The notes under the pieces are model-generated. The model searched no databases. It was not told where the DNA came from and saw only the letters and a program-made list of their open reading frames with translations. Made by a program: the position numbers and the translations under genes. A stretch of 64,000 nucleotides of DNA from Amphiscolops sp. MND2022 (lineage: Eukaryota), in assembly GCA_964187785.1 (NCBI GenBank), contig OZ076409.1, positions 17,548,001 to 17,612,000 of the forward strand, given 5' to 3'. Shown piece after piece: positions 6,150 through 39,200 of the stretch (position 1 is the stretch's first letter; every line of letters begins with the position of its first letter).

Positions 6150-6990
6150 AACCCTTGAATAACGTTTGCATCAATATGCATCTTTTCTGATGAAAATACA
6201 TGTCGATATACGCTTTTATAGTAAATGAATATGCGTAATTGTACGTTTTTCAGTGTGACGATTATGCGTCAGAATACGTTTTTGATATGCTCATTACACT
6301 GCATTATACGCGTTTCAATAATATGTATATACACGATCATGCGTATTTTGAAATTGGACCTATGCGTCATTATACTGATAGTAGTTTGAAGTATATACAA
6401 CACTTTGCGGTTTTGGACTATGCAGTATCATGCCGCTTTTGGGATTACGTATGTACAATGTTATATGTTTTCTGTCTATACGGCATTATGCGCATTTTGG
6501 ATTTACGAATGTGCGGTGTTTTGCATATATTGGCTCTGGTGCTACGTGACTCCACATAGAGTGAGATATTCACTACCCAACGCTTCCTTGAATTCATAAT
6601 GTATGATATACGCTATTGTGCCTTTTGCAGTAGTGTGTATAAGCGGCATTATAGGTTTTTGATTATGCGGCATTATACACATTGTAGGGTTGCGTAAATA
6701 CAGTTTTTTGCGTATTTCAGTGTTTCGACTGTACGTTGCCATATATATTACAGCATTCAACATAATGCGTATCTACAAGTGACAAATATGCGTCACTATA
6801 CGTTTTCAGTATATCGCATATACAGTATAGTACATTTGCACTAAAGACGCTTGATTTCATTCAAATATGCCAGTTTAAATGTCATGTAGTTGTAAATTTG
6901 TATACTATAAATAGAATTACATCATTTGACGTAACTCTATTAAGATTTTACCAGGGTACATGACATCCCGAAAAAGGGGTGTCATGCTTG
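6150..6990 (+). mobile_element. possible non-autonomous element with a degenerate TATGCG-rich interior (copy at 9275-10115)
   Basis: Recurrent TATGCG/GCATTATAC motifs; imperfect inverted pair acccttgaataa / ttttaccagggt; terminal hairpin catgacatccc-gaaaaaa-ggggtgtcatg. Confidence 0.35.
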
Positions 6991-7432
6991 ATATTCTCCA
7001 AGGAAAATGAGGGGACTAAATACCTTTTTCACTTCTTGAATAACTTTCGCACTGAACAGTAACTCTTCTCATTCATCTCTTTTTGTAAAGACACAATTGA
7101 TCACATGTTTGTACTGCATCATCTCCAGTTTTGATAAACATTAAGTCAATCAACAATTCAAAAGACTGATTTTCGCTTGAGCAAAGATGGGATAGAAGAA
7201 ACAGGAGACAAATGAAATTGAAAAAGCAAGACCTTCGGGATCCAAAACGTACAGTCTATAGGAGTTCGCGCATCTTATAACGAAAATTCAGACTCAGAAG
7301 ATGAGGAGTATCATCTTCAGGCCTCTAAAATGAAAGACCTTAGACATCCAGCCAAACCTTTGCATAGAAGTGAAATGAACTCAGACGCAACATTAGTATC
7401 AGAAGAGGACTCTGAGGAAGAGGATTTTCACA
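6989..7432 (+). repeat. possible solo LTR of another Gypsy family (copy at 10114-10557)
   Basis: Ends ..TTCACA exactly where the hAT relic resumes; acidic frame (EEDSEEEDFH) runs out of the 3' end like the LTR ORF of the large Gypsy; 5' end and TSD unclear. Confidence 0.3.
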
Positions 7433-7505
7433 GTGGAGATGACCCGGAGGACAGCATGGCTGGCCTGGGTGTTGTCGTCGATTGTGCCGAAAATTTTAAT
7501 TGTCT
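7433..7505 (-). pseudogene. hAT transposase relic, second-Asp fragment (copy at 10558-10630)
   Basis: KIFGTIDDNTQASHAVLRVI resembles the hAT tDNa motif; lies in the expected order between the other fragments. Confidence 0.45.
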
Positions 7506-7845
7506 TCAAAGGGTCCTTCTTCAGTCTTTTCGATATTTTGCAACAGAATGGATGTTGAAAAGGTCCAAAACATTCCTTTCTTACTTTCTTTGGCACCATG
7601 AGACTGTTCAAAATTCTTATCTTCCCTTTTATCTTTTTATATGTCTCTGAAACGTCCATCCTTTAGTTTTTTGATTTTGTTCAACAAAAAGGATGCTAAA
7701 AATATCCCAATTGCCCTTGCTACCGGGCCCCGGCGCTCCTGTTCGGTAGCTCTTTGGGTTTTTCCGGGTACTGTGAAAGAGCATACTCGGCACTTCGAAG
7801 TCCTTTAGCTATTTTTGAGTGCGCAATCGGGGCCCGACCTATGCC
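7506..7845 (+). mobile_element. fragment of the HINE-like family of 33679-34215, opposite orientation (copy at ~10631-10985)
   Basis: cacttcgaagtcctttagctatttttgag is a close reverse complement of ctcaaaaatagcaaaaggacttcaaagtg at ~33719-33748. Confidence 0.6.
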
Positions 7846-7850
7846 TATCG

Positions 7851-10800: not shown

Positions 10801-10970
10801 TTTGTTCAACAAAAAGGATGCTAAAAATATCCCAATTGCCCTTGCTACCGGGCCCCGGCGCTCCTGTTCGGTAGCTCTTTGGGTTTTTCCGGGTACTGTG
10901 AAAGAGCATACTCGGCACTTCGAAGTCCTTTAGCTATTTTTGAGTGCGCAATCGGGGCCCGACCTATGCC
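7851..10970. repeat. tandem duplication copy 2
   Basis: Starts atcaaaagcagcttg as at 4726 and ends gacctatgcc as at 7845; 5-bp filler TATCG at 7846-7850. Confidence 0.97.
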
Positions 10971-10974
10971 GATC

Positions 10975-11400: not shown

Positions 11401-12833
11401 CGGCAGGCGTAATTAGGTGTACACGGACGGTTGTAGCGCCACTTCTTCATTCTAATTTTGTGTTTCAATTGGTTTTGGACCGTTGGTATAACTACTTTCT
11501 ATCCAAGAGCATCTTTCTTTACTAAGGGCGCCGCAGTAGCGTGTGTAATTCACAAATTCCGAAAGAAGGCTGTCTTAGTTTTTAAGCAATCGGGTGCTTG
11601 TCAAAAACATGGAAGTTTCGACGGTACCATTGCAACACTCAAGAAAATGTTTCAGAAAATGATCGAGAACGTTTTCATACAGTTTCGATCACCTACTTTT
11701 AACGAAAGCGACAGTAAAAAACAAAAACTAAAAAAGATGTGAAAAGAAGCAACCTGTTTGCTGGCTGTCATGTAGAAAGTCCGATACACGTTTCGTTTTC
11801 TATGAAGCAGTCAGGAGTTGTTTGAGATATGGCTCTTTTTCCTAAGGTTTCTGGTAAACCACAGGCTTTTGCTATTTCGAAAAATCCGGGAACAGTTTTG
11901 CTTGACGAATTTTTTCTGTTAATCCTGATGTAATTTTGACCCAAGTGTGAGATATTTCCGCTCAATATTACATAGTACCTCAAAGAAATTGTATACAGGA
12001 ACATTAATATTTAAGGTACGCGGGACCAGACGCGCGGGCCCGTTAGAAAAAGACATTCGACCTTGGCTTGTAAGACCTCAAGTTGACAGCAATAATTAGT
12101 GCAGTCGATTGCTAACGCAAACAGAATTGTATTTGCGACCCATCCTGGATAAACATACGCATATCATGTAACCCGGAGACTATTGAGTCGAGCTTTACAA
12201 TTTGACTTGTCGTAACTTTTGTTGGACACGCATAACTTTAAAATCACAGGGTGAAACTCAAAATCATATCAATGAGAATATCATACCCTGAATGTTTGTA
12301 AAGCAATAAATTGAAACGTGTAAATAAATCGTGTTGTGTGATAATTTATGTATTTAAATTTTAGGAAATATTTTCAGGCAAATTTCATTTATACAAATCA
12401 TTCTAGGCGGAAGGAGTCGCGATGAACGGCAATCATTCGGACGGGAAAATACCTGGCACATGTAGGGGACATGTGAACCAAGTGAGAGAAAGTCATTGGG
12501 TGATCACCTCGACATTGAAGTTATGTTGCGAGACTTGATTTTTATCATGGAATTTGAAGTTAGGACAAGTTGTTGAACTGTTTGTCATCGGTGATTTAGA
12601 AAGTCAAAGAAGGTTTACTTGAAGTGTAACATGAAGGTTTACAGAAGGTTTCCATGAAGGTAAAAGCATGCAATTTTAAGATACCGACGCCCATAATTGG
12701 AAGAGCTAATAATGAGGCGGAAACGAAATGTACTTTAACAGACACATCCAAGTTACAGAGTGAAAAACAAGTTGACCCTCGCGGCGAAAGCAAGAGATTT
12801 CAACTAAATTTAAAACTGATCGTCGTAGCTCCG

Positions 12834-14019
12834 TGTCATGCCTGACGCATGATAATACTGAACAACGATGCTCTCAACTGAACAACATCAGTAAAAGGTG
12901 AACCGACAATACACGCCGAAATGCAAATGGGGAAAAGAATGTAGTTATATACACGGCATCACTAAAACCAAAAAAACTAAAACTCTTCAATTACATCATT
13001 TCTACATTATTTACATGTCATCACACAACAACCCAATCCCATTTTCATTATAATCATACACACTTAACATGACTTTTCTCAACCCATTCCTAAAGTGCAT
13101 CACGTAATGTAGTTGATATACTATCGTCAGAACTATTTTTAAGTAATTATTTTATTCATTTCTTCATTAGTTAAACCAGGCTATGCTGGTAACTCAACCA
13201 CTCCATTTTATTGCTCAAGAATACAGCGTTAATGACATAAACATATTTCATTCCATATGTAAGTGATGTTGGTAATATAACCACATCACAGTGCTTTCTA
13301 AATTTACATGTAACGATAGTAATATACCACCATTATAGTGCATTATTACTCATTTCAATTATTGTAGTAAATTTAACAAACAATATGCGTAGCGATGGCA
13401 ACGCAACATGATCGTAAAGCCTCAAATAGTACAACCACCAGTATGTCGCAATTAACACCTCATTAGTAGTGCAGTGCTATTGGTCAATACAGTCACGTGA
13501 CGTTGTCACGTGACCGACATTGCGAAATTGATAAGAGGTGCAAAAAGACAGCCATTAACCTTTGGTATAACTTGACGCTCAGTAGCTTACCACATCATTG
13601 CGAAAGATTAACCTTTCTCTTCAAAACTTGAATTCAACCTTAAAATCCCAATTCAAATTCTTTCAACAATTCCAGTTCTTTATACAAAATGGTAAATACA
13701 CGATCTCAGGCAAGAAGTTCCATCCCAGTATTCATGGGTAAAACAAGTAGAAATGACCGTGTTAGTGATTCCGAAAGTGAATGCCGTATTCCCGACCACC
13801 TCACAAGAGAACAAATTGATGAATTAGATAATGAAAACCTCATTCATTCTGAACAACACTCCGATCAAATGACTATTGACCAACGTTTCTCGAGTATGAA
13901 TAGACAAATTAATGAGCTTACTGGACTAGTATTAGCTTTAAGGGAAAAGTTATCCTCCAGTCATGGAGAAGGGAACGATCGAAATACAGTTATCGATAAG
14001 ACTAACGCACGTTCCGACA
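12834..14019 (+). repeat. Gypsy 5' LTR
   Basis: tgtcatgcctgacg...gttccgaca; about 20 substitutions versus the 3' LTR by eye (~98% identity). Confidence 0.97.
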
Positions 14020-14032
14020 TGGTGACAGGAGT
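14020..14032 (+). promoter_or_regulatory. primer-binding site, possibly tRNA-Leu
   Basis: TGGTGACAGGAGT directly after the LTR-terminal CA; absent after the 3' LTR; tRNA identity inferred from similarity to TGGTGTCAGGAGT. Confidence 0.75.
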
Positions 14033-15198
14033 CCCTCAGACCAACCTCCTGGCGAACCCAAACCCAACACAACAATCAACCTCCAGATACCCTCAGCCAC
14101 CCGCCAGCCAGTTCGACGACATTGTCAGTGAAATTCACCATCTACGAGACACAATGACGCATACAGTGCAGCATCCCAAAATCCTGCACACACAAGTCCC
14201 GCTCTTCAGAGGAAACCGGGAGAAATATAACGAATTCGAACACTTGCTACTTAATCACCTCAGACCGCACCAGCACAAGCTGTCTGAAGATCAGAAACTC
14301 ACATATTTCCAGAGTTTACTGCGAGACGACGCCATCGAGTTCTGGCAATCACTGAAGATGACGTGCCAGACCACACTTGCCCAAGTCCTCCGCTACTTCA
14401 AGAAAGAATACGCGAAAGAAGATCTGAAGGAAGTAGCGAAATACAAATTCGATCAAATGCGCTACGATCCGACAGCTGAGACGTTCAACGACTTTTTGAA
14501 CAAATTCAAAAAAGTGGCGAAACAAGCATTTGGAGATAAATCAAGCGACATAACGGAAACCCTTCTGTTCGCTAAACTGCCCGTCCAGATGCAGAACGAA
14601 TTGGCTATGGCTGGGAAACACGATGCGTCCATGAAAGAAATACGGACATTTGTTCAACGACGATGCCAATACGCCCAGCTCATACCAAATACAACGCCAC
14701 AACCATTCAACCAGATCAGAGCTCCACAACACAATGCAGCTGAACCTCAGTCATCGAACTCCCAACCACCCCAAAACCGGAGACGAAACGAAAATTCGAC
14801 AGACAATGCCGCCACGGTGGAATCACAGGCCACAAGTGGGCCGAATGCCGTAAGCGCCTCAGGGAGGAAGCGCAAAACAAAAACAGCCACAACCAACAAC
14901 AACCAGCTCAACCCACCAACACCCAGGACGTCAAACCTAAATACAACCCCAAGTTGGTGTGCCAAATATGTGGCAAAGTGGGACACTCCGCCCGAGACTG
15001 CTACTACAGAAATACGACGACGTCAGTCTATAGAAGCGTCCCGTATTCTAAGCAGTCGACCGAAGAAAACAAGCAGTTCCGCCGCGACTTCAGACAAACT
15101 AACAACAGGGTCTACAACGCGAACGAACTGTCCCACGCCACCAACGATGAAACTGATCATGTCGAAGAAACGGAAAGGCACGATGACGTAGAAGACCC

Positions 15199-15205
15199 AA
15201 AAAAC
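15199..15205 (+). promoter_or_regulatory. -1 ribosomal frameshift heptamer A AAA AAC (copy at 18273-18279)
   Basis: In-phase X XXY YYZ just before the gag TAG; the -1 frame is open from here into ORF 15271 and the protease LLDTGA. Confidence 0.8.
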
Positions 15206-16702
15206 TTCTAGAGCCACGTCATCCTCCACAATCATACAAAAGTGCGCTACTAAATCAACGACAACCAACTATGACCCAGACTCGACTACATACTGGAAAC
15301 AACACGGGGTGGCAGTCCCGTCCTTCAACTTACACTAAGGAGACTACAAACTTTGTCATCACCCGACATTCGAATGATAATTACTCCATTAAACCAAAAG
15401 AAACGAAACCAAGAAGTGAAGTCAACAACATAAATCAGCCTCCCACCAATGACGCAGCCCCTAACCAAACAAACGCTGATACAACAACCACATCCGCCAA
15501 ATCACCAAAACCACCAAGAAAGCTGAAGTACGAAATACGTCAGCTGAGTGCCACTCTTCAACTGAACAGAAAAGACAGGATGCTCTATGTACCACTTCAA
15601 TTCCGTGCATACGAGAACTTCGGTCTACTCGACACCGGCGCAATCCAAAGCGCCCTCTCTGAAGCTGAACTCCGTCGAATCCTCACGGCTCACCCAGCAG
15701 CCCTCCTTGAAGAACTCCCTGCTCCAGAGTTCAAGGTACAAATCGCCAATGGCAATATTGTACCTGTGAGGAAACAAGTCCTTCTACGATTTTTATTGGC
15801 GGCAAAATCTTCGAGGAAACGTTCATGGTCCTCTCGACGATGGGGAACATCCTCATAGGAATGTCGTTCTTTAAAAAGTACTCAGTCACCCTAGACCTCG
15901 CCAACAACATCGTCAAATTCCCGGACATCAAACTCCAATTGCGATCAGTCAACGGCAGATTCAAAATAAACTACTAGAACTGAAGACCACCCAGAAGATA
16001 GTGCTTCAACCAAACCAACAAGTGTTCACTCCAGTGGTGATTGAACGTGATCTAGGCGATATCACCGGGACAGTCAAAGGATTACCTGCATTTAAACGAC
16101 GCACGAACCTACTGGTGTCGCCAGCTCTCAGCGAAACCCAGGAGGGCCGGACTCATGTCCAGATTACCAATCCACTAGATTATCAGATAACGATCAATAT
16201 GGGCACGGCTGTAGCATCCTTCAAAATTTTGACGCCAAAGCAAGCAACCAATCTGCAGCCGATGACCGACCATCAACTGAATCTGATCTCACAGTACCCA
16301 GACGAAGCTGAAGCTGTACTGAACCAGATTTTCCAGAACCCTACTGCCAAATCAGACAGACGATGGTACCCTACCCCTGAGACGTGTGACGACCCATCAA
16401 AACTAAACAAGATCGAGAAACGAATCTATGAGGAGATCATCAAACTCAGGGAACAGGAGAAACTTGATCCGACGACGAGCGAAGAGCAACGACACGAATT
16501 CCTGGCAAACTTTCAGTGGGAACAATCAATACTGAGCCCGCACGAAAAGCAGCAAGTTGAGGCCCTATTGGTTAAGTACCATGACATCTTCGCCAGGCAT
16601 AGACTGGATATTGGAATCAACACCGAATTCAAGATAAAGTTGACTCCTAAACACGACGAGCCAGTCTATGCACAAAGTCTGCCTACACCGACGAACTTGA
16701 AA
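15199..16702 (+). pseudogene. pol: pol copy 1, truncated at the start of RT
   Basis: LLDTGA protease; frameshifts; breaks at PTPTNLK where LTR sequence resumes. Confidence 0.9.
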
Positions 16703-16761
16703 GAATTCAACCTTAAAATCCCAATTCAAATGCTTTCAACAATTCCAGTTCTTTATACAAA

Positions 16762-18285
16762 ATGGTAAATACACGATCTCAGGCAAGAAGTTCCATCCCA
16801 GTATTCATGGGTAAAACAAGTAGAAATGACCGTGTTAGTGATTCCGAAAGTGAATGCAGTATTCCCGACCACCTCACAAGAGAACAAATTGATGAATTAG
16901 ATAATGAAAACCTCATTCATTCTGAACAACACTCCGATCAAATGACTATTGACCAACGTTTCTCGAGTATGAATAGACAAATTAATGAGCTTACTGGACT
17001 AGTATTAGCTTTAAGGGAAAAGTTATCCTCCAGTCATGGAGAAGGGAACGATCGAAATACAGTTATCGATAAGACTAACGCACGTTCCGACATGGTGACA
17101 GGAGTCCCTCAGACCAACCTCCTGGCGAACCCAAACCCAACACAACAATCAACCTCCAGATACCCTCAGCCACCCGCCAGCCAGTTCGACGACATTGTCA
17201 GTGAAATTCACCATCTACGAGACACAATGACGCATACAGTGCAGCATCCCAAAATCCTGCACACACAAGTCCCGCTCTTCAGAGGAAACCGGGAGAAATA
17301 TAACGAATTCGAACACTTGCTACTTAATCACCTCAGACCGCACCAGCACAAGCTGTCTGAAGATCAGAAACTCACATATTTCCAGAGTTTACTGCGAGAC
17401 GACGCCATCGAGTTCTGGCAATCACTGAAGATGACGAGCCAGACCACACTTGCCCAAGTCCTCCGCTACTTCAAGAAAGAATACGCGAAAGAAGATCTGA
17501 AGGAAGTAGCGAAATACAAATTCGATCAAATGCGCTACGATCCGACAGCTGAGACGTTCAACGACTTTTTGAACAAATTCAAAAAAGTGGCGAAACAAGC
17601 ATTTGGAGATAAATCAAGCGACATAACGGAAACCCTTCTGTTCGCTAAACTGCCCGTCCAGATGCAGAACGAATTGGCTATGGCTGGGAAACACGATGCG
17701 TCCATGAAAGAAATACGGACATTTGTTCAACGACGATGCCAATACGCCCAGCTCATACCAAATACAACGCCACAACCATTCAACCAGATCAGAGCTCCAC
17801 AACACAATGCAGCTGAACCTCAGTCATCGAACTCCCAACCACCCCAAAACCGGGAGACGAAACGAAAATTCGACGGACAATGCCGCCACGGTGGAATCAC
17901 AGGCCACAAGTGGGCCGAATGCCGTAAGCGCCTCAGGGAGGAAGCGCAAAACAAAAACAGCCACAACCAACAACAACCAGCTCAACCCACCAACACCCAG
18001 GACGTCAAACCTAAATACAACCCCAAGTTGGTGTGCCAAATATGTGGCAAAGTGGGACACTCCGCCCGAGACTGCTACTACAGAAATACGACGACGTCAG
18101 CCTATAGAAGCGTCCCGTATTCTAAGCAGTCGACCGAAGAAAACAAGCAGTTCCGCCGCGACTTCAGACAAACTAACAACAGGGTCTACAACGCGAACGA
18201 ACTGTCCCACGCCACCAACGATGAAACTGATCATGTCGAAGAAACGGAAAGGCACGATGACGTAGAAGACCCAAAAAACTTCTAG
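16762..18285 (+). CDS. gag: Gag, intact 507-aa ORF (copy 2)
   Basis: Capsid-like region (VPLFRG..EFW..LRYF); degenerate knuckle CRHGGITGHKWAEC and intact CQICGKVGHSARDC. Confidence 0.9.
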   Translation: MVNTRSQARSSIPVFMGKTSRNDRVSDSESECSIPDHLTREQIDELDNENLIHSEQHSDQMTIDQRFSSMNRQINELTGLVLALREKLSSSHGEGNDRNTVIDKTNARSDMVTGVPQTNLLANPNPTQQSTSRYPQPPASQFDDIVSEIHHLRDTMTHTVQHPKILHTQVPLFRGNREKYNEFEHLLLNHLRPHQHKLSEDQKLTYFQSLLRDDAIEFWQSLKMTSQTTLAQVLRYFKKEYAKEDLKEVAKYKFDQMRYDPTAETFNDFLNKFKKVAKQAFGDKSSDITETLLFAKLPVQMQNELAMAGKHDASMKEIRTFVQRRCQYAQLIPNTTPQPFNQIRAPQHNAAEPQSSNSQPPQNRETKRKFDGQCRHGGITGHKWAECRKRLREEAQNKNSHNQQQPAQPTNTQDVKPKYNPKLVCQICGKVGHSARDCYYRNTTTSAYRSVPYSKQSTEENKQFRRDFRQTNNRVYNANELSHATNDETDHVEETERHDDVEDPKNF

Positions 18286-21200
18286 AGCCACGTCATCCTC
18301 CACAATCATACAAAAGTGCGCTACTAAATCAACGACAACAAACTAAGACTCGACTACATACTGGAAACAACACGGGGTGGCAGTCCCGTCCTTCAACTTA
18401 CACTAAGGAGACTACAAACTTTGTCATCACCCGACATTCGAATGATAATTACTCCATTAAACCAAAAGAAACGAAACCAAGAAGTGAAGTCAACAACATA
18501 AATCAGCCTCCCACCAATGACGCAGCCCCTAACCAAACAAACGCTGATACAACAACCACATCCGCCAAATCACCAAAACCACCAAGAAAGCTGAAGTACG
18601 AAATACGTCAGCTGAGTGCCACTCTTCAACTGAACAGAAAAGACAGGATGCTCTATGTACCACTTCAATTCCGTGCATACGAGAACTTCGGTCTACTCGA
18701 CACCGGCGCAATCCAAAGCGCCCTCTCTGAAGCTGAAATCCGTCGAATCCTCACGGCTCACCCAGCAGCCCTCCTTGAAGAACTCCCTGCTCCAGAGTTC
18801 AAGGTACAAATCGCCAATGGCAATATTGTACCTGTGAGGAAACAAGTCCTTCTACGATTTTTATTGGCGGCAAAATCTTCGAGGAAACGTTCATGGTCCT
18901 CTCGACGATGGGGAACATCCTCATAGGAATGTCGTTCTTTAAAAAGTACTCAGTCACCCTAGACCTCGCCAACAACATCGTCAAATTCCCGGACATCACA
19001 CTCCAATTGCGATCAGTCAACGGCAGATTCAAAAATAAACTACTAGAACTGAAGACCACCCAGAAGATAGTGCTTCAACCAAACCAACAAGTGTTCACTC
19101 CAGTGGTGATTGAACGTGATCTAGGCGATATCACCGGGACAGTCAAAGGATTACCTGCATTTAAACGACGCACGAACCTACTGGTGTCGCCAGCTCTCAG
19201 CGAAACCCAGGAGGGCCGGACTCATGTCCAGATTACCAATCCACTAGATTATCAGATAACGATCAATATGGGCACGGCTGTAGCATCCTTCAAAATTTTG
19301 ACGCCAAAGCAAGCAACCAATCTGCAGCCGATGACCGACCATCAACTGAATCTGATCTCACAGTACCCAGACGAAGCTGAAGCTGTACTGAACCAGATTT
19401 TCCAGAACCCTACTGCCAAATCAGACAGACGATGGTACCCTACCCATGAGACGTGTGACGACCCATCAAAACTAAACAAGATCGAGAAACGAATCTATGA
19501 GGAGATCATCAAACTCAGGGAACAGGAGAAACTTGATCCGACGACGAGCGAAGAGCAACGACACGAATTCCTGGCAAACTTTCAGTGGGAACAATCAATA
19601 CTGAGCCCGCACGAAAAGCAGCAAGTTGAGGCCCTATTGGTAAGGTACCATGACATCTTCGCCAGGCATAGACTGGATATTGGAATCAACACCGAATTCA
19701 AGATAAAGTTGACTCCTAAACACGACGAGCCAGTCTATGCACAAAGTCTGCCTACACCGACGAACTTGAAAGACGACCTCCTAGTTGAGCTGGCGTTGAT
19801 GCAAGAGTACGGTATAATCACAACATTACCGTACAGCAAGTACTCATCACCCATCTTCGCCCAGCGTAAACCGAATGGAAAACTGAGAATACTCGTAGAC
19901 CTTAGGAGGATCAATCACCTGTTAAAGAATGACTATAACCAGCATAACCATCCAGTGACGACGATGGCCGATGCAGCACAACATATGGCTGGGAAGCGAT
20001 ACTTCTGCAAACTGGATTGTTCGCAAGCGTATCACTGCTTGCAGATGGCAGACGAGCAATCAATTCAGTTGCTTGCATTCAACTTTGGAAGCAGGACGTT
20101 CGCCTTCCTCAGACTGCCCAAGGATTGAACTGGTCCCTGTCAACTTTCAATAGTACTGTTCGAGAGTACTTGGACCCTCTGGTCAAAGCTGACAAGTGTG
20201 CGCAGTACGTTGACGACATCGGCATTGCAGCCAGCACTGTTGAAGAATTAGTCGACAACATAGAGGCCGTGTTCACCAAAATCAGACAAGCAGGTCTCAA
20301 ACTTTCGATGTCGAAGTGTGCTTTTGGTCACCCCGAAATCGAATTCCTTGGCAGAAGCATTACCAGTAAAGGCATCGGGCCCATCGAGAAGAAGATTGAC
20401 GGCTTCCTGAAAAACATCAAAGTGCCGACGTCAGTGAAATCACTTCAGCGATACATTGGATTTGTACAATTCTACCGGCAGTACATACCGAGACTAGCCG
20501 AGAAGTTAGTGCCCCTATACAAGTTGTTGCAAAAGGACGTAAAATTTCAACTCACGCAAGCCCACAAAGACGCAATATTTGACATCAACGAAAATTTGGC
20601 AAACTCTGCTAAGATGTCATTGAGGTTACCACTTCCTGACAAGCAATTGGTGATCATGTGCGACGCCAGTGAGCACGCAGCCGGTTATGTCCTCTTGATG
20701 AAGATTACACTGAAACCAGCGAAGGTCCGACGAGGTCATATGCTCCAGTGGCGTTTGGTTCACAAAGGTTCACTGAGGGCCAGATGTCACTCACGATGTA
20801 CGCGAAGGAGTTCCTGGCTATGCACTTCGCCTTCGACGAGTTTGCTCATATCTTGTGGGGTGTGAAGAAACCAACCATTGTCATGACAGACAACAAAGCC
20901 CTCACAAGATTCTTCCAGTCAAAGCGGATACCACCCAAGTTGTGGAACTACTGCGATCAAGCACTCCAATTCGATTTCGTCTTAGCCCACGTCCCCGGCG
21001 TCGAGAACCCTGCTGCCGATTACCTATCGAGGATCGATATCGACCCAGCAGACAGGATCCACCTCAAGTTACACGATGAGATACCGGTCTTCAAGGTGGA
21101 AATCGACCTGGCATCCAAGACGCCCAAGCAAGACGATGACGAGGTAGAGTACATCCCTGACGATCATGATGTACCAGATGTCGTCACGTCATCGAACCAG

Positions 21201-23586
21201 ACAATCCAAACACTGATGACGATGTTCCCGCAACAACACCGTGAAAGTGACGACCAATACAACGGACGTATCGAGGAGATCAGGTCTCAGATACAACCAT
21301 TTGTGACGCCCTCTGACCCAACTCTTCTCTTCACCCGATTTCACCGACGGGACCAGGTCCACATGGTAAATCAGGTATGCCGTTCGGGGGTTTCAGAAAT
21401 TGTTAAGGCTCAAGGCGAAAGTAGTGACGTACAACGTGTAATTAGGATCCTTACTGTCCAAGAAACACCTCCTAACCACGTGAACTTTGAAAGTACCTTT
21501 TTCCAAAAATTGTTCAAGAACCGTAAAAGACTTGAAGTGGTTAACAACGTCTTGTACAGACAGTTTTAGACAACGTTGGACACCTAGCTTACCGACAAAT
21601 TGTAGTTCCTCCAGAAAGTACTGAAGCCATAATCAGGACGATGCATGGCGACCCCATGCAGGGACACCCTGGCGCTTCCAAAATGTTAAGTGAACTAAGG
21701 AAATGGTACTACATCCCAAACCTAACTTAAAAGATGCAAGAGTTTGTAAAGAATTGCCAAGAATGTATCAAAGCGAAACCTGCGAAACCTAACACTCTAG
21801 TACCTCCACTTGAACCAATATATGACCCATGCAACGGTCCTGAAGACATCCTTGAAATTGTAGGTGAGTTACCGCGATCTAATGGGTACTCACACATCCT
21901 GACGGCTTGTGATTATTTTTCGCGTTACCTGTTTGCTATCCCGATCCGCAAACCTGATACGAAGCACATTATCACCGACAAAGGCTCTGCTTTCACTTCA
22001 CAAAATGTTAAGTTTGCGCTTCCAAAATGTTAAGCGCTTCCAAAATGTTAAGTGAACTAAGGAAACGGTACTATATCCCAAACCTAACTGAAAAGATGCA
22101 AGAGTTTGTAAAGAATTGCCAAGAATGTATCAAAGCTAAACCTGCGAAACCTAACACTCTAGTACCTCCACTTGAACCAATATATGACCCCTGCAACGGT
22201 CCTGAAGACATCCTTGAAATTGTAGGTGAGTTACCGCGATCTAATGGGTACTCACACATCCTGACGGCTTGTGATTATTTTTCGCGTTACCTGTTTGCTA
22301 TCCCGATCCGCAAATCTGATACGAAGCACATTATCACCGACAAAGGCTCTGCTTTCACTTCACAAGTTAAAGCCGAATTAATGAACAGAGCCGGAATCAA
22401 GGTCTCACACGCGACAATCAAACACGCCCAATCTATTGGGATGGTCGAAAGGTCACACCAACGTTTAAAACAGATTCTGAAAATAAACGTCTCTGCGGAC
22501 CGTGCCCAGTGGGACAGATATGTTAACCTTGCAGTTATGGCGCATAACACAACTTATCATCAGTCCTTAAAATGTTCTCCAACTGAAGTCTTCCACGGCC
22601 GAGTGCCATACAACGCTCTAGACCTGAAATTTAGCAACCCTCTGAATCTACCACGAAACACTGTTGACACAAAAACATTAGTGGACAACCTGAATACAAA
22701 GTTCAAAGAGACGCACGCCAACATCATCAAGGTTTTTCATAAATACAAAGCGTACTACGACCGAAAAGCGCAAGCATCGCCACTGAAAGTAAACGACTTT
22801 GCCTTTCTATTGAATCCTAAAATTACAACACAATCTGACAAAATTCCCTTCAACTCCTTTAAATGGGAAGGACCCTACAAGGTAGTCAAAGTCCTATCAC
22901 ATTCAAACTACATCATTAGAAAGGTGGGTACATTCCGAACACAGTGTGTACATAGAATGCGGCTTCGCCCATTCGTACCACACGACCCCATTGGCGACAT
23001 AGATGACGATGCGAAAAAACACTATAGTGATCCAGACGCTACCGACGACCAAACCATATTTAACGAAAACTTGCCTGCACCCGATATACTAACTCCGGCT
23101 GAAAACACGACTGAAACCGACACTAATGAATTTGAGGGTGTCGATAAAGAACACGGAACAATCTATTACGAACGCGAACAAATGCACGAGGTTCCACCTC
23201 TGCCGAACGCTCTGCCCGATAAAGTTCACCCTGACAAACAATCTGACATGACCGAAGTACAACATGGTATCATCTCGTATGAACGGGAACAAACGAACGA
23301 GGTTCCACCTCTACCCGAGCCATTACGAGATACCGCTCACACAAACAACACTGAACAAGCTGAATCTGAAAGTCTGCCTGAAGAAATGAATTTGCCGATC
23401 AACAATGATGTGGGACCAACCACATCCTCACCTGAAACGCCCGAACCAATCACGCGAAACAATATTACCAGATATAGTCTTAGAGAAGCGCCTGTACCAA
23501 AAACATACAACAACTTCCTCGTTCACGAGTTACATGCAAAACCGGCACTCTTAGAATTCATGCAACGCAAATCAACAAGCCTTTAG
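18273..23586 (+). pseudogene. pol: pol copy 2: PR, dUTPase-like spacer, RT, RNase H, integrase
   Basis: LLDTGA; LRILVDLRRIN, KLDCSQAYH, QYVDD; MCDASE, TDNKAL, NPAADYLSR; HHCC, ITDKGSAF, GMVERSH, WEGPY; several frameshifts and stops. Confidence 0.95.
21672..22365 (+). repeat. 362-bp-period tandem duplication inside integrase
   Basis: 21672-22003 repeated at 22034-22365 (MQEFVKNCQEC... twice). Confidence 0.95.
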
Positions 23587-25163
23587 TAAAATTTTCCTAA
23601 AATTTTATTTTCACATTCAATTGAATGTAGTCTACATCACCACATGCATCAATCATACCTTTAAATTATTTAGTCTACTTTACGCAATTCAGTGACGACT
23701 GATACTCACTGTCCGATTTACTTAAGTATACCGGCAGAGTAAATGGTTACTCTCTACCGAGACAGCTGAGCGCAAAAGTAAATACATGTAATGCAGTCAT
23801 ACACACCGCATCACGTTAACCGGAAATCATTAAGTACATGTAAAACACATGCAAACGAGCTACTAATTTATGCATTTCACAGAAAACCTCAACCACACGC
23901 CTTCAAAGGAATTGCTTTGCAATTCTGTTCTTACCTACCTTATTGCGACAGAAATAAACCAATTTAGCAAAGGTAATAACACACAACCGAACATGCAAAA
24001 AAGATAGCTGCCTTAGTTAAGTTACGCCGCCAAAATCTAGTCCCGCACTTCCGCCCAGGAAATCATGATGTGGTTCGGCTGTGTGGGTGCGTCATCAAAA
24101 GCGCGTATGTGTGGTTGTACAAACATTCAGATGAAGCTTGCTCTTTAGCAAGTGGATTCGGTGTTAGTTTTGTATGGGTTTTTGCGACGGCAAATAACCT
24201 TCCCAATCCAATGAACAACATATAAAACTTTCCTAGGACAGTAAAATGCAGTCGTCACCTCTACATCGAAGTTAGATCATGACACTTTTGTTCTTACTGT
24301 TGATGCGTAGACTTCGCCTCGCGTTAGGAACGAGAGAACAACAAAAAACATGTAGTCATATTCACTACATTACCGAAGATTCGTAACAAGGGATGGTACA
24401 CACCACCCCTTGTCAAAAAGTTCAATGGCCATGGGGAAACCCATCTACCATTAGGATTGACGTTAACACTTGACACACGACACGAAGTGATGACGTCGCA
24501 TGACACACATCAACGATGACGACGTCAAGAATAACGCTACATAAGAAATAAACATATGTAACACTTGACATGAACTGACAGATTAAAATGACACTTAAGT
24601 TAGTAAACACCTGTCAAACAACCACCTAGAGCACTATAAAAGCAGCTACTCAAAAAGTTCAAATCATCTGTAGGAGTTGAGCGACTCCACCCACCCACCA
24701 AGCTTCCATCTCTGTCATATGTAAGCCATAATCATGAACAACGCTGACACGAGGATGGCACTTGGTGAGTGAGAGCTTTTCAATGGTAGTTACCTCGGCG
24801 ACTACTCTACTAGAACTTGAATGACTTGCAAAGCTGAGCCTATCACTCCAACATTTTGAAACCAGCTAACGAAGTTCACACGCAAAAAATTAGTATAACA
24901 CAGTCAACATGTAAATTCACATGAAAAACATGCAACCTAGCCGACCAATCTGCTAAATGTAGACCAAATCATAGGCCGTCACACAAAATGTAAATCAAAA
25001 TGTAACATAATCAAATCACATCGAGCAAATAGCAAATCTACACTGACAAAAAAAAAAGAATCGGAATAGCACAAATAATTCACTGTAGTGAATTATGACC
25101 AAAAACAAACAGAAAAGATAACAGTTTCTAAATAAGTTTCACGGTAGACAAGTTCGCATACAT

Positions 25164-28100
25164 TTAATTGCCTGATCCAAAAGAATCCAAGTGAATACGG
25201 CTCAGTCGTTTCCTCCCGCTCACAAATACTTCACTAGCGGAATCGTCATCGGAGCCAACAACATTAGCTAACTGCAAGTGTTTCGTTCCTCAGGGAATCC
25301 CTCCTGTTCTACGCCCAACTGACTGTCTCGTACGGACACCACTACGACTAGTTGAAGGCATACAACGTCTCGCACCCCTTGGATTCTTAACGGCGGATCT
25401 CTTCTTCTGGGGGGCTGTCTGAGCGGAAAACGGCGCACTAATGCCCAAAGTCACATCAATCTGCCTCCGTGCACTCTTTTTTGACTTAGCACTACTGACA
25501 CCAATGGGACTGCTTCGCCGTCCAGCTCGTGGGGGACTGAATACCTCCACAAGATCCAATTGAGCCAAGACATTCGATCGATAATCATCAATAGGCACAG
25601 TTGAGGTAGTAGTTAGATCATTGGACAATACAGCGTTTCCCAAAGAGAGAGCTTCACTCAGACTTGATTTGATTAATCGATCCCAAGGCCTGCACCGCGC
25701 CTCATCTGTTAATCGGGACACTTGCATATCACTCGTAGAACAAACACGTAGTAGCCCAGTGAGCGATTGACGGGTATGACCCGCAAACATCTTCGAAAAC
25801 CAACTCCTGACAAGATGCAGACTAGAACGCTGAGTATCAACAGACATAGCAGTACCAAACTCATCACTGAAGTTAGGGTTGTAAGTTCCGACAACTGCAA
25901 GTCCAAACAATAGGTTCAGTACTGACAACAACTCTTGACATCGAGACCAAAAAGGATACGAGAACCACATCGTGATTACATCATCCACTGCAGGCATGCC
26001 TTCAATCAAGGCCCACTTGGTTTTGAAAAATTGGGTCACTTCCCGATATTGTCTCAGGGTATTCGCAGCTATGGTGTCGCTCATTAAATTATAACGAGAA
26101 AGAGTAGCACAGGTTCCGACCAAAGCATCAATACAGCGATCATCAGACCCACCATGCACCAACAGTGGATCGAAAGGAGTCAGACTGAAGTGGTCAATAG
26201 CTCCACATTGCCACGTCCCCACAAGCTCCGTGCATATCACTCCCAACAATTTCTGCACTGACCGGTAGAAGAACGGGAGTTGTGTGCGAACGTCATACCG
26301 GAAATACTGACCAAAATGCAGTTGGTACAGACTCTCGTCTATTGTCGAGAAATCGCGCTTCACTGGCTTCAGGAGTGAATCAACTTCATACTCAGCAGGT
26401 ATGGTTGATTCAGGATACACTAAACGCATCAGCCTCCGAACGAATTGTGACAGTTCACGCTCAGCAACCATGTTACTATCACTGCTGCTCCTACACAATC
26501 GAGGACACGTTTCGGCCACTGTAAACACAACGCAACACACGTTAACCCATGCTCATAATTAGTTTGAACGTACCATTTAGAAACAAAAGGGGGGATAAAG
26601 AGTTAAGTCGACAAAAGCCACCAATACCCTGGCTGAACTCAATTACAAAAAAACCATACTAACACAAATCCAAAATGAAACGTAGAACGGCAAAACGAGG
26701 GCGCATCATGGCATCGTCAAATACCTGCCCCTCAAGCGGAGTCACCAGGCGCAACTCAGAAGTCACATTGGGGCGATGAGTTCCAAAATAGACTGCGAGG
26801 TCGTTCCAGTATTCGGCAACTTCTGCACACAAAGCAGCCAACGAAACCACATCACTTCCTCCGACTAGTATAAACTATAACAACAAAAGAAACATCCACG
26901 CAAGAAAAATAAGTAGACCCCGCAAAGTAACACCTCCTCTTCAAAAAAAAATTGGATCAAATGTCCTTTGATATACAACATACTATACATGTATAGTTCA
27001 AAATACTCACTTGTTTCAAACGAGGTAAACGATCCAGAACACTCTCCTGCACCACGGAGGCTAGTCAAACACGCAAATAGTCCAGAACGCTGAGGGGATC
27101 CAGACCCACGAACTCAGCAAGAAAGTGCTTCCTAACAAGGTCAAACAACCACACTTGCGTCACTCGACCCACAACCAAAGGGTCAACGATCCCGACTGAA
27201 GCTGCTAGCGCGTATCCAATGCGAGTATCTGACTCCGTGCTGTACGCCCTCATAGAAGAACCATGTGACAGACTCAACAACACCGGAACAACAGTATCGA
27301 GCATTCGCTTCTCCCAACCGGTCCCGCCGACCACAACACCAAGACGATTGTTTTCACAGCGTAGTCGCACACCACATGACACTCACACAACCAATCTGCT
27401 TCATGTCGTCTGATACTGACACTCGCGCCTTTACCACGAGCTATCAGTTCATCTAACTGCTCCACGACGAACCGATACAATCCATAGGGAACCAGACTCT
27501 GTAAACAAAAGAAAAAAATCAACCTCTTTCTGCACAATTTCAACTATAGCTGCATAGTTGCACACCCAAACATACAGCCACAACCCTTAGATGACATCAT
27601 CACACACAAACAGAAATCGACATGAACTTATGTAGATACATACCTGACATCGTGTGTAGGTTAAGGTGCGGCACTCAACTCGCAGTTCCGTATTCATGGT
27701 GTCCCGCCACGACTCCACCATTTGCATCACATCTCTGAATGTGGTAGTACTACAGAAACTGCTCACAAACTGGCTCAACCACAGGAATGAAACGCTCTCC
27801 TCGCCCAAAACAGGTTTTCCTCAAGAAACCGCTTCAGCCTCTTCAATGGCAACCCTCTCATCAACACTGAGACTCAGCTCTGACTCCAAAAACACAGGCG
27901 GTTCAGACATCCGTGCTCGCCGAATCCGTCTGTCTTCTTCTGCGGACACTGGCCGACAGGCCTTATCAAGTAACGGCATCTGCATCATGATGCGAAACTT
28001 CTGCTCCACACGGGTGTGCTCTACACCCCGCCAATGCTCCCACAAGGAAGACAAACCACGTCCGGCAATGCTGAGGTCGACTTTGCACAACAGGCACCTG

Positions 28101-29431
28101 GCATACCCGTCGACTACGCGCTTATGTCGTGGGAAACCAACAAAGGTCCCCACCACCATACCAGAAACGAAATAGGCCGGCTTCAACGTCTTCACCTTCT
28201 TATTGCGACCTACAATAAAAAACAGCAACTCCAAAAAAAACTTGTGTCGTAAATCGTAATCCTTAACCTAAGTGCTAATACTAAAACCCCTCCCATGATC
28301 TTCTGAGATTTCTTACCAGGTTCAGCAGTAGCGGATGTGGAGATACCCCCCTCTTTCGAAGCCACTGAACGGACACCAGCGAAAGCAGTCGGAACATCGG
28401 ACACTTGACTCAAACTGACAGATCGTGAACTACTGGAATCCAAAGGACTCCCGGGTGCTTCCAACCGCACTGACGGCACACTTGTCACAGCTTGCTCAAC
28501 CCCAGATCCACCAGGCACAGAAGACGCAGCCAAGTGCTCCATTGCTGTTTTCAACTTTCCGATGAACTCCTCGACGGACAACGCACAGACCGATCCCAGC
28601 TCGCCCATTTTGGAATCAATAATTGCTTTGACAGTCCCTGCCAATTCTTTCGTCATCTGCTGAAATGATGACTCCAACTCAGCAATGGTTACAGGCAAGC
28701 CTGTAACAGTCCCTACAACACAACTTAATTTTGACCATATGCTGTGCACCATTCAACATGCAAGATACCGCCAATCCTAACAGTGAACTACGACTGGAAG
28801 TATATTCAACCTAATGGATAACAATCGACTACGTACCTCGCTCATCACCGAGGACAGAACGGAGCCCATCCTCCACAGCAGTTAGTTCAGTAGCACCACT
28901 GACAGCAATACTCCGTTTCGAAGCTAACAGCCTCCGGAGCAAACTCACAATCTCTACGAGTGACAATTCTTCTAAAGTACAATAATGCCTAATTAGCTAC
29001 CACATCAGTTACCCAGAGCATTTGATCCCGGGAAGTACATGCCACAATGCCAGTACCGTGCAAACCACATACTAGCATACCATAATTCAGGATGCTCTGA
29101 AGGAAGATAACCTTCCCTGGTTACTACTTCGAAAAAAAAAAGAACAACGAAATATTGGAAATTGAGGGTACTCACGGAATTCACTCGATAGAGCGATCTC
29201 TAATAACGTGTTGGCTACTTCTTTATTGGCAGCAGTCACTTTCCCAGCGAAACGGCAACAAATTCCTAGACGCTCTCCTGACAGAGTCTCCTCCACAGCA
29301 GCTGTTAACTCACTGCCCACCGAAGAAAAACTTAACTGTGCCAACTCAGTGAACACCCCCTCCGCAGCTAACACAACAGAAGCCACATCAGTCGCAGCCT
29401 GAGACGTCTCCACTTGAGGCGTTGAACTCAT
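25164..29431 (-). pseudogene. antisense 8-exon gene (~1,170 aa) with BED-like zinc finger and hAT-transposase-like C-terminal region; mildly decayed in this copy
   Basis: Exons 29431-29176, 29126-29013, 28971-28837, 28712-28317, 28209-27644, 27498-27011, 26874-26664, 26518-25164; donors GTGAGT, GTAACT, GTACGT, GTAAGA, GTATGT, GTGAGT, GTTAGT; T-rich AG acceptors; phases consistent; three in-frame TGA and one frameshift in exon 6; the exon 4 acceptor is the least certain. Confidence 0.8.
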
Positions 29432-30208
29432 AACGGCAATAACAAGCAAGTCTGAAAAGAATAAAATCAAGGCTAACAATCTGGAAGCATACAGTCGTTT
29501 GCGATTTACTGAGATTCAAATTAACTTCTAAGGATCATGTGGCCTGATCACCAACATTATCTATGCAAAGTTACTACCCGAAAATTTCAAAGGGACAACC
29601 GAATTCCCGTCACCCGTCTACTAATATTTCCTCTAAAACGGTCAACACCTACCCGAAAAATTTGTCAAAATCACAACACGACTTCCTGGCTTATCCTATC
29701 TATAGCCTACTTGCTTAGTTGATACAGTCACTCAGTAAACCGCGGCCGAACTGAACTGCTGAAGAATCGCACCAATGAATATAATGGAGAAAGATTTGTT
29801 TCTCGGTTCTGGCATCGGCGAAGATTTGTTTACAAAGCGCACGACATTTCCACTGCATCTTACTTCCGAACAGTTACCGAATAAGCCGAGTAATTATATT
29901 ACGCTGCCACGTTATTAAATTCCGGCAAATTCACTCTCGCTCTCACTCTCTTACTGCAAACAATGCGCACGATTGGATGACGTGGCTACATTTGCCACAT
30001 CGACTTTATATTTACTCTTGACCGAAGTGGAATGTTCGTAATGCAGTGAACATTTTTCCAAGCATGATGCCGAATCATCCACCATGATGCAGTTGCTATG
30101 ACAACGTCACTGCCATTTCCGACGAATAATCAGCACAAAGCTCAAAGCAGCCGATAGAAACGAACAATTACATCCAACTCTCCTCCACCCCCACCACTTG
30201 CTCTTTTC

Positions 30209-30223
30209 AAAAAAGACCCGGAG
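30209..30223 (+). promoter_or_regulatory. polypurine tract (imperfect)
   Basis: aaaaaagacccggag abuts the 3' LTR. Confidence 0.6.
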
Positions 30224-31409
30224 TGTCATGCCTGACGCATGATAATACTGAACAACGATGCTCTCAACTGAACAACATCAGTAAAAGGTGAACCGACAAT
30301 ACACGCCGAAATGCAAATGGGGAAAAGAATGTAGTTATATACACGGCATCACTAAAACCAAAAAAACTAAAACTCTTCAATTACATCATTTCTACATTAT
30401 TTACATGTCATCACACAACAACCCAATCCCATTTTCATTATAATCATACACTCTTAACATGACTTTTCTCAACCCATTCCTAAAGTGCATCACGTAATGT
30501 AGTTGATATACTATCGTCAGAACTATTTTTAAGTAATTATTTTATTCATTTCTTCATTAGTTAAACCAGGCTATGCTGGTAACTCAACCACTCCATTTTA
30601 TTGCTCAAGCATATAGCGTTAATGACATAAACATATTTCATTCCATCTGTAAGTGATGTTGGTAATATAACCACATCACAGTGCTTTCTAAATTTACATG
30701 TAACGATGGTAATATACCACCATTATAGTGCATTATTACTCATTTCAATTAGTGTAGTAAATTTAACAAACATTATGCGTAGCGATGGCAACGCAACATC
30801 ATCGTAAAGCCTCAAATAGTACAACCACCAGTATATCGCAATTAACACCTCATTAGTAGTGCAGTGCTATTGGTCAATACAGTCACGTTACGTTGTCACG
30901 TGACCGACATTGCGAAAATGATAAGAGGTGCAAAAAGACAGCCATTAACCTTTGGTATAACTTGACGCTCAGTAGCTTACCACATCATTGCGAAAGATTA
31001 ACCTTTCTCTTCAAAACTTAAATTCAACCTTAAAATCCCAATTCAAATTCTTTCAACAATTCCAGTTCTTTATACAAAATGGTAAATACACGATCTCAGG
31101 CAAGAAGTTCCATCCAAGTATTCATGGGTAAAACAAGTAGAAATGACCGTGTTAGTGATTCCGAAAGTGAATGCAGTATTCCCGACCTCCTCACAAGAGA
31201 ACAAATTGATGAATTAGATAATGAAAACCTCATTCATTCTGAACAACACTCCGATCAAATGACTATTGACCAACGTTTCTCGAGTATGAATAGACAAATT
31301 AATGAGCTCACTGGACTAGTATTAGCTTTAACGGAAAAGTTATCCTCCAGTCATGGAGAAGGGATTGATCAAAATACAGTTATCGATAAGACTAACGCAC
31401 GTTCCGACA
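30224..31409 (+). repeat. Gypsy 3' LTR
   Basis: Copy of 12834-14019, followed by TSD CTCCG. Confidence 0.97.
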
Positions 31410-31459
31410 CTCCGGAAGCTAGAAATAGAAAATATACAAGTCGGGGACTTGAAAATTGA
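31079..31459 (+). other. LTR-encoded Gag N-terminus (110 aa) reading 16 codons into flanking DNA
   Basis: MVNTRSQARS...NARSD nearly identical to the gag start; diverges exactly at the LTR end. Confidence 0.85.
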
Positions 31460-36249: not shown

Positions 36250-39200
36250 AAATCAGTTGTTAGCTGAGACAATAGCTCATTTATCAACGATGACCAATTC
36301 GAAAGAAGTACTGCCACAATTCCGCGACCAACTGGAACTCGAAAAAAAGATACATTTCTATAGGCGATCGGACAAAGTGCACTAACAGAAATGACAAAAA
36401 CGGTTAGAGAAAAGGAACCCAGTGCTTTACCGTTATACAAATTGTATACATTATTTGGACTATACATTACCCCAGAAAGGAATATACAGCACATCCGGGA
36501 TGATTTTTTGACCTAAAGAGAGAAACAATCTAAACAGCCGCGGACATATGGAAAAGGATTACAGACGTTGAGAAGAATTGCGAATTTGAGACCATAACAG
36601 CAGCCGAACTCATACCTTGAAAATTCCTATCATTAATAGGGAAATCCACAGGAGATTATGAGCTAAAAAGAAGGTTTGGAACAGTGACATGTCCATTGAA
36701 GCAATCACAGACGCAATACATGAATAATTGTACGAAAAACTGATTGAATCCCCGAAAACAGAGGAAGAAAAAAAATCCGACATGTGGACAAAAGAAAATT
36801 AAAAAACAACAAAAAACCAACTGAACGGTACTCAAAAAACAATGGACTGCAACAAATGTGGAGCACCCAACTGGTCCAAACAGCATGAATGTCCCGCAAG
36901 AGGAAAGAAATGCATAAAATATGTTAAATTGGGGCACTACGCAAAATGTTGCAGATCAGCCGGAAGATAAACCATATCGCAGAAAAAGCATACAGTGCAG
37001 ACGAAGATGACTGGGTACCGGACAAAATATACTCCATCCGGCAGTAAATACACTCATTGGGAACAAAAAGCAAGAACAGACCACCGATTTACACTAAAAC
37101 CCTATTGGTTAATAACCGACCAAGAAAATTTATCGTTGATACAGGCTCACCGGTAACACAAAAACCGAAGACAAAACTCAACAAATTAACAACATTTAGA
37201 CCGGTAGTGGAAGACTACCGGGACGTGAATGACAAAAAAATAAAGTTCGAAAGTATAACAGTAGCAAATGTCGAATTCAACGGCAAAGTGAGAAAACTGG
37301 AGTTTCTGATAACTACCAGACAAACACACCCATTACTCGGACTCAACTGGATGGAAGAATTGGGAATAACGCTAAGAACGGAGGTCCCCCACCAAACAAT
37401 CAAGCACCTAGATGAAACGAACCAAACAAATGACAAACCGGACACGGACATAACAGCACTGAAAAGTAAGTTCCACAACTCTTTTCAAAAACTCACACGA
37501 TAAAGAACATAGAAGTAGGTATTCAAACAAAAAAGGGAGCAAAATTATTACAGCCAAAAGGCAGACGACCTATCGCAATCCATCTACTACAACCCGCAGT
37601 AAAAAAAAGAAAGAAATCGAAAAATTAAAAAAGCAGGAACATATCGAAAAAGCAGAAAACATCGACGAAAATTGTTTGGTTAGCCCCCCCGGTAATCACA
37701 ATCAAAGAAGACAAATCAGTGAAAATATAGCTTGGCTGGATGACATAATAATAGTAACAGAAGGCTCCAAACAAAAACACATGGACGGTTTAGTAGACGT
37801 ACTAACAAAACTAGAGAACGCCAGCTACCGACTCAGCGAAAGCGAATCCGAACTATTGCAATCAGAAATAGAGTGGATCGGCCATAAAACAGACCAGAAC
37901 GGAATACTATCGTTGCAAGACAAGCTACTCGCGATCAAAGAACCGAAAAAATTTGGAAACGAAAAAGAACTAAAATCATTTTTGGGGGCAATTCAATACT
38001 TGTACAAAGACATCGAAAATCTGTCGCTCCAGACGGATATTTTGCGACAATTACTTAAAAAAGATACCGAATGGAAATGGACCGAAGAACACACCAAAGC
38101 ATTCGAAATTTGAAACAAAAAATCACGGAGACACCGTGTTTGGCTCATTATAGTTCAAACTATCGAAATGTAATAACCACGGACGCAAGTACAAAAGGTC
38201 TCATGGCCACTCTTTCGCAAGAACAACCGAACGTTAAATTAAAACCAATTGGATTATCCAGCCGATTCTTTTCCGATACGAAAAAGATACATGCAATAAT
38301 GAACTGGAACTCTTGGCGGTGGTCTGGGGACTTGAGCATTTCCGCCTGTACATTTACGGAAAACCGATTAAATTACTTACAGATCACCAAGCGCTCGAAC
38401 TATTGATCGAACGCAATCGATCAAACAAAACATACAGCGCAAGGCTAATGAGATGGTCAGACCGACTATCTCACTTTTCATGTAACGTGAGCCATATAGC
38501 CGGTAAACATCTAGCACTCACAGATTATCTCACGAAGAAGAATACGTAATCAACAGCATCATACCGCACTACAAATTCATGACCAAATACGGTTGCCTTA
38601 GCAACCATTCAGACCAATCACAAAGCGCGATATTGCGTAACAAACTGAAGCAATCTAACACGCGTGAACAAACTGCCCTTGCTTGCCTAATCAATCGACA
38701 AAAAGTTACACTTATTCGCTTCCTACAAAACCAATTTGAATATGGACACGCAAAGCATCAAAAACTTGGAACTCGCTGACTCTTCTGCAGAAACAAGACA
38801 TTTAAAGGCCCGCTGGCTAGAAATCGTTAAGCCTGGCGTATACCAACAATCCGGAGTATACCAACAAAAGAAAGGTGGATAATAGAAGAGCGACTACAAA
38901 TAGCTATACGAAACATAGAGAATAGAAAAAACGGAACAACTACAAGGCTTCCAGCCACAGGAAAGACGTAATGAACAAAGGACAGTGGACCCATTCTGGG
39001 AGGTAAACCGCCCACAGCGTCAACAACCACAACCAGATAATGGACCCGGACCGTCTTCAAGACAAATACAACGCACCCCGATGGAGGAGGAGGAAATGGA
39101 TTCAGAAACGGATCAAGACCCGTCAGTATTGCAGGTTTCGGCAATCAACTGGGCCAAATACGTGGGCGTCAAGAGCGTCCAATACATCAAAACGGGCCAC

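Follow-up and report, generated by a model that had tools for sequence, protein, structure and literature searches.

The window (the whole stretch of 64,000 nucleotides analysed, from Amphiscolops sp. MND2022) contained a Ty3/gypsy LTR retrotransposon at 12834-31409 on the plus strand, with a spliced antisense gene between its integrase and its 3' LTR. The 5' LTR (12834-14019; 1186 bp; TGTC..GACA ends) had 20 mismatches to the 3' LTR (30224-31409; 1186 bp), and the target site duplication (TSD) CTCCG (5 bp) lay directly outside both LTRs (12829-12833 and 31410-31414). A primer binding site beginning TGGTGACAGGAGT (14020-14037, plus strand) and a polypurine tract (30205-30223, plus strand) were assigned from sequence, which completed the features by which an LTR element is recognised (TG..CA LTR pair, primer binding site, polypurine tract, TSD of 4-6 bp). 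The gag-pol region (13690-23586, plus strand) was frameshifted and had internal duplications. In it, gag was followed by reverse transcriptase (RT), RNase H (RH) and integrase (IN); CCHC, RT, RH and IN were detected with Pfam on the plus strand in the Ty3/gypsy order, and the protease was assigned from sequence and from its position in that order. Self-BLAST indicated apparent tandem duplications inside the element at 13630-16703 and 16704-19773 (99.4%) and at 21672-22003 and 22034-22365 (98.2%). At 13690-14040, the gag ORF began within the LTR and read over the primer binding site, so that the 3' LTR repeated the first 110 gag codons; distant subfamilies had the same arrangement.

Outside the element, the window contained a satellite of 310-bp units (57895-64000; at least 19 copies), a tandem 3.1-kb duplication (4726-7849 and 7851-10974; 99.9%), a 2.4-kb direct repeat (48560-50907 and 54086-56454; 93%), a decayed Ty1/copia-type RT (3183-4101) and a second decayed retroelement with protease and RNase H (37048-38406).

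The antisense gene (minus strand, 29431-25164) had seven exons (about 1,130 aa); the span flagged in the preliminary description, 25800-28130, fell within this larger gene. Exon 1 (29176-29431) had the start codon and a conserved CCxFAxxV..LL..LS.EF motif, and its donor phase was identical in 14 of the 15 copies printed. Exon 2 (28837-28971) had AG/GT borders and kept the frame, and exon 3 (28317-28712) encoded a conserved helical segment and a Ser-rich linker. Splicing of exons 1-4 was canonical (GT/AG) and in frame. Exon 4 (27644-28209) encoded a C-x2-C-x16-H-x5-H zinc finger, YARCLLCKVDLSIAGRGLSSLWEHWRGVEH, at 28105-28016, followed by helices; this finger had been reported earlier in exon 5, and belongs to exon 4 of seven when exons are counted from the ATG at 29431. 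An RNase H-like fold was encoded by exon 5 (27011-27498), the RW region of hATs, with its motif absent, by exon 6 (26664-26874; 211 nt), and the helical insertion and C-terminal region of the transposase scaffold plus a basic tail by exon 7 (25164-26518), in which the Glu-equivalent region was at about 25863-25982. The reported FDP..QYRE..DDVITMW..CQELLSVLNLLFGL..NFS motifs and Ser/Arg/Lys-rich tail were confirmed in the ORF at 26552-25290. The window copy was broken by premature in-frame stops in exons 4 (27821-27823), 5 (27065-27067) and 7 (25290-25292), and by a frameshift near 27340 in exon 5 (488 nt vs 489 nt in siblings).

Copies, exon conservation and selection

In the 1.07-Gb assembly, a search with the last exon returned 1030 candidates; 100 of them were scored, and every one matched (46-100% identity), many with open frames. 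A search with a distant member returned 1358 candidates, with subfamilies 34-44% identical to the window copy; last-exon identity across the family spanned 99% to 34%. Integrase was on the strand opposite the antisense gene in 31 of 40 10-kb loci. Complete gag-RT-RH-IN elements were found in 12 of 16 extended loci (LTR pairs 93-99.9% alike), and 5-bp TSDs in all seven complete elements inspected; pol was absent in the other four extended loci, three of them within one duplicated block. In most copies a conserved ORF lay between pol and the 3' LTR on the opposite strand, the arrangement that defines an antisense additional ORF.

The codon positions of the exon 4-7 junctions did not differ even in copies of 34% identity, and introns differed between copies in length and sequence. 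Exons 4, 5 and 6 were constant in length in all ten copies whose spliced exons 4-7 formed an open frame. These ten, from 40 loci, are a lower bound because the automatic annotator missed anchors in 25 loci; the remainder had stops (3) or a shifted exon-5 end (2). The dN/dS ratio was 0.01-0.15 in 25 of 26 unsaturated antisense exon comparisons from 15 pairs and 0.31 in one, and 0.01-0.14 in pol. In recent bursts of near-identical copies, the last exon was open and LTR pairs were over 99% alike. The product of the antisense gene is almost certainly a functional protein.

Relatives at 15-26% identity were present in protein collections; the one tested had no close match in this genome, so that, from this comparison, the family probably extends to another species. 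Three loci on three chromosomes (L050, L051, L058; with flanks L217-L222) lay in a shared block longer than 25 kb (about 98% identity). The block held a pol-less gene copy together with a second, inverted copy that belonged to another subfamily and was internally deleted; it may be a segmental duplication or a giant mobile unit.

Ancestry of the antisense protein

Pfam and PDB sequence searches with the antisense protein gave no match beyond zf-BED, which was below threshold (E 0.027 in 8 of 43 rows). The preliminary description had proposed a hAT transposase derivative with a BED finger and a C-terminal dimerisation domain; the finger did align to that of the donor family described below, and Dimer_Tnp_hAT (PF05699) gave no match in the antisense protein or in the donor family. 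A hAT-type family with a similar finger served as the route to the donor lineage. A genome search with a short C-terminal motif of this family gave 14 matches (reversed control, 0), all internally deleted transposases. Through the deleted copies, seven longer relatives (P0219-P0225) and 79 metagenome loci were reached; UniRef names one of the seven a 'Dimer_Tnp_hAT domain-containing protein'. Internally deleted copies of a hAT-type transposon with CAGGG terminal inverted repeats (TIRs) are still in this genome (L100-L107, L108-L137).

In the donor-family alignment (77 rows), D, D, CxxH, RW and E were near-invariant. Donor TIRs were 12-15 bp and contained AGGGT, mostly as CAGGGT, at about 10 of 45 loci with enough flank, and the TSDs were one of 5 bp and one of 6 bp, each seen once. 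The donor lineage is possibly hAT5/hAT6/Blackjack. Families of hATs with 5- and 6-bp TSDs exist (PMC12730594). Because the donor family had no Pfam hAT match, its hAT label rests on the motifs, the TIRs and the UniRef name.

Against the donor alignment, hhalign scores were 37.6 for exon 4, 31.5 for exon 5 (E 0.0018) and 54.0 for exon 7 (P 85.6%, E 5.6e-6), with maxima of 22.2, 18.9 and 19.1, respectively, in 25 shuffles each. Scores for exon 6 and the end of exon 4 were not above shuffles, exons 1-3 had no detected counterpart in hAT-type transposases, and the alignment faded past donor residue 654. Five segments were independently colinear (donor residues 34-72, 150-167, 198-282, 384-406 and 458-654), and the helical insertion between D2 and E was colinear with the donor family. 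The composite alignment spanned 553-623 columns, with P 93%, E 5e-8 and score 43 in global mode and P 75% and E 2.5e-5 in local mode; controls (8 each) reached at most 5.6 with column shuffles, 1.2 reversed and at most 26.7 with block shuffles. Single donor sequences scored 22-32, and eight ORFs from Pfam-typical hAT loci 14-16, which is background. With HMMER, the best E of the donor profile on single antisense frames was 0.03.

Structure was predicted with AlphaFold (AF2) from a natural sibling ORF; as this frame continues across intron 4, the model contained translated intron (mean pLDDT 48.7). Exon 5 had the RNase H topology b1-b2-b3-a-b4-a-b5 (pLDDT 70-78 there), and the exon 7 model was all-helical. 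The comparison with Hermes suggested earlier gave a divided result. With the exons 4-5 model, Hermes (PDB 8edg, 4d1q, 2bw3) was the top Foldseek match (E 5.5e-4, probability 0.97) and occupied ranks 1-3, 5, 6 and 9, but superposition was weak (TM 0.19, rmsd 22 A), and the last-exon model alone retrieved no match, Hermes included. VIA-align confirmed the RNase H-like fold class, placed generic RNase H-like folds of actin/Hsp70 type first, and did not have Hermes among its best 50 rows. The protein shares its RNase H topology with Hermes and differs from it in lacking the catalytic motifs.

The colinear profile matches and the structure uphold a hAT-type transposase origin, which is remote and very probable, with a donor of the short CAGGG-TIR lineage and not of the Pfam-typical hATs. 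The whole transposase body was retained, including the RNase H fold, which had not been recognised in the preliminary description. The antisense protein has in common with CAGGG-TIR transposases the order and spacing of finger, helical region, RNase H core, insertion domain and C-terminal region, and decayed members of that group occur in this genome; unlike them, the antisense gene has no TIRs, CxxH, RW or conserved DDE, has six introns, an N-terminal addition of about 260 residues relative to the transposase scaffold and a basic tail, and moves within an LTR element.

Zinc finger, cassette exchange and proposed function

Among exon-4 rows selected for an open frame, the C/C/H/H ligands were invariant in all 20, and the finger is therefore not a product of chance. 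Conservation was highest in alignment columns 1-120, which cover the finger and the helices after it; identity between subfamilies was 71-79% there, compared with 30-51% in the rest of the folded body and 23-28% in the tail. The LTRs of the subfamilies barely aligned (short patches only); with the finger conserved while the LTRs diverged, the finger target looks invariant. Two non-coding boxes downstream of pol were conserved where the LTRs no longer aligned, and are candidate packaging or protein-binding signals. Box 1 (24077-24200) had 79-84% identity in the most distant subfamilies, no Rfam match, and single-strand folding no better than shuffles (z 0.41). Box 2 (24472-24526) had two GACACAC..GATGACGTC-like units conserved across subfamilies, and is the candidate binding site. 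Between the boxes and the antisense gene, at 24634-24770 on the plus strand, a TATA-like motif stood ahead of an ATG and a GTGAGT site resembling a splice donor, common to L034, L039 and L060; a small sense transcript from there is possible.

The antisense gene was exchanged as a cassette spanning about 24920 to 29800. Two loci (L034, L039) shared 91% of the spacer of the window, with a cassette only 46% identical. The antisense and integrase trees conflicted, and monophyly of the cassette clade on the integrase tree was rejected (p-AU 3e-60), the clade having been defined from the antisense tree after both trees were seen and L031 omitted as a long branch. As judged from these trees, the cassette was swapped between pol lineages, and the repetition of one combination each by L033/L034 and by L037/L039 suggests that recombinants transposed.

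The reading preferred, with a probability of about 0.55, is that of an antisense accessory gene with introns, likely descended from an entire hAT-type transposase, whose protein has probably lost catalysis and is predicted to be a zinc-finger DNA-binding factor keeping the element transcribed. A hAT copy would have inserted antisense into the 3' internal region and then lost its TIRs. Its introns would face away from the genomic RNA and would not be spliced out before reverse transcription, which would explain their persistence. The protein would be translated from its own antisense mRNA, be taken into the nucleus by its basic tail, oligomerise as hATs do, and bind a short repeated internal motif, for which box 2 is the best candidate; binding would activate the element or shield it from silencing. 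As a trans-acting product could be exploited by copies lacking the gene, its retention would require cis-preference. Regulation of its own element by the protein was given an even chance. The fullest form of the proposal, tentative and somewhat below even, is that a whole class II (hAT) transposase was domesticated by a retrotransposon as a swappable, intron-containing antisense cassette with sequence-specific, VANC-like counter-silencing or activation of its own elements.

With the same hAT origin, the protein might instead tether the pre-integration complex to host DNA or chromatin, in integration targeting or nuclear import. A transposase scaffold engages DNA and partners alike, and a basic tail and finger conservation equal to that of integrase are in line with such a role; against it, one cassette clade occurred on several integrase lineages, and the flanks of seven insertions had no shared sequence (a comparison of low power). 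The invariant finger, interchangeable cassettes and conserved repeated motif would fit a DNA-binding regulator better than a lineage-matched integrase partner, and a tether is considered unlikely. A host-protein partner fits these three observations as well. This leads to a somewhat less probable alternative, again of the same origin, in which the protein acts as a repressor that limits its own element, or has an invariant silencing factor of the host as its target instead of element DNA. The invariant finger despite diverged LTRs is explained equally well by a host partner, and nuclear regulators are known among antisense retroviral proteins, HBZ for one (PMC11963269), but the recent near-identical copies with an open last exon and LTR pairs over 99% alike speak indirectly against self-limitation or host-factor binding.

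Catalytic residues, known systems and meaning

The active-site features of hATs are DDE, CxxH and the position of Hermes W319 (PMC4763223). Loss of Glu, RW and CxxH, claimed earlier, holds for the window subfamily in aligned-row counts. CxxH was found in 0 of 24 exon-5 rows and RW in 0 of 20 rows, with RF at or near the site in two. In the best (hhalign) register, 12 of 24 rows had Asp at D1, none of the 12 in the subfamily of the window or the 47% subfamilies; in the ungapped register, 0 of 24 had it. At D2, the 24 rows had Asp (6), Glu (10) and Gly or Ser (8). Depending on register, the Glu position was occupied by Glu in 16 of 91 rows or in 0 of 90, and Asp was one or two residues off it in 57 of 90 rows. 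No DDE position was conserved, and the window subfamily lacked D1 and E. One distant subfamily (L041-L044; 4 of 24 exon-5 rows) had Asp at both D1 and D2; because of this, and with Asp common beside the Glu position, residual metal binding may, on these alignments, occur there. No convincing TIR pair surrounded the gene in 3 of 3 copies, and none of CAGGG type was found at five further loci.

Selection was equally strong in clades without the Asp residues, so that the selected function is likely independent of them. The label 'catalytically dead' thus fits the window subfamily, where a non-catalytic protein is highly probable, and is less certain for the distant subfamily with two Asp; across the whole family, loss of catalysis is probable, with less assurance. 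By its sequence, the product is outside the active hAT transposases. Retained nuclease or strand-transfer activity, whether through an unusual active site serving the retrotransposon or in a nested, still mobile hAT, would agree with the L041-L044 residues, the acidic residue at D2 in 16 of 24 rows, the conserved Asp near the Glu position and the intact RNase H fold (AF2), but is very improbable given the absence of CxxH and RW, the register-dependent D1 and Glu, the lack of a TIR pair with TSDs at the LTR ends, and the undiminished selection where Asp was lost. Least probable is a real gene of non-hAT origin combining a generic zinc finger and a generic RNase H-like fold, as the missing Pfam hAT match, the VIA-align preference for actin/Hsp70-type folds and the matchless last-exon model might suggest, because the ordered matches over about 620 columns beat all shuffle controls, were specific to one transposase family and agreed with the separate Foldseek ranking.

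ZBED proteins are host-domesticated hAT transposases. Kat1, also a host-domesticated hAT, likewise keeps the transposase scaffold for a new role; it differs in that its domesticator is the host and its catalytic triad is kept (PMC4763223), whereas here the domesticator is another transposon. VANC of VANDAL (Mutator-like) is a functional analogy only, an accessory protein acting through a short motif that recurs in the element encoding it (PMC6719617); it is encoded in DNA transposons, no homology is claimed, and anti-silencing is only predicted here. The plant Ty3/gypsy elements Grande (gene23), RIRE2 and Retand (TRP28) and the fungal Boty also have a conserved antisense ORF between pol and the 3' LTR, proposed to encode nuclear or DNA-binding regulators (PMC7264820 and PMC11963269). 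'Transposase 28' is a domain of unknown role. The origin of those ORFs is unknown, whereas here full DNA-transposase ancestry is traceable, with seven exons and a mobile cassette. For those ORFs, lack of similarity was held not to support descent from a nested transposable element, and the origin and function of antisense accessory ORFs in LTR retrotransposons were described as unknown (PMC7264820). In the literature covered (titles and abstract openings, outside subscription journals and Repbase), no LTR retrotransposon with a hAT-derived accessory gene was found, and the family may already be catalogued without the transposase interpretation.

The antisense gene is concluded to be real and under selection, an accessory gene of hAT descent in a Ty3/gypsy family, and what is new among antisense additional ORFs is its traceable class II origin. 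The family is a traceable case of the nested-transposon route; it is under strong purifying selection, comprises many subfamilies, has undergone recent bursts and has swapped cassettes naturally, and its defined finger and defined candidate site make the regulatory hypothesis directly testable. Transposon-encoded anti-silencing factors are very few and all from plants, according to a 2019 review (PMC6719617). If true, the full proposal would represent transposon-on-transposon domestication across the class I/class II divide.
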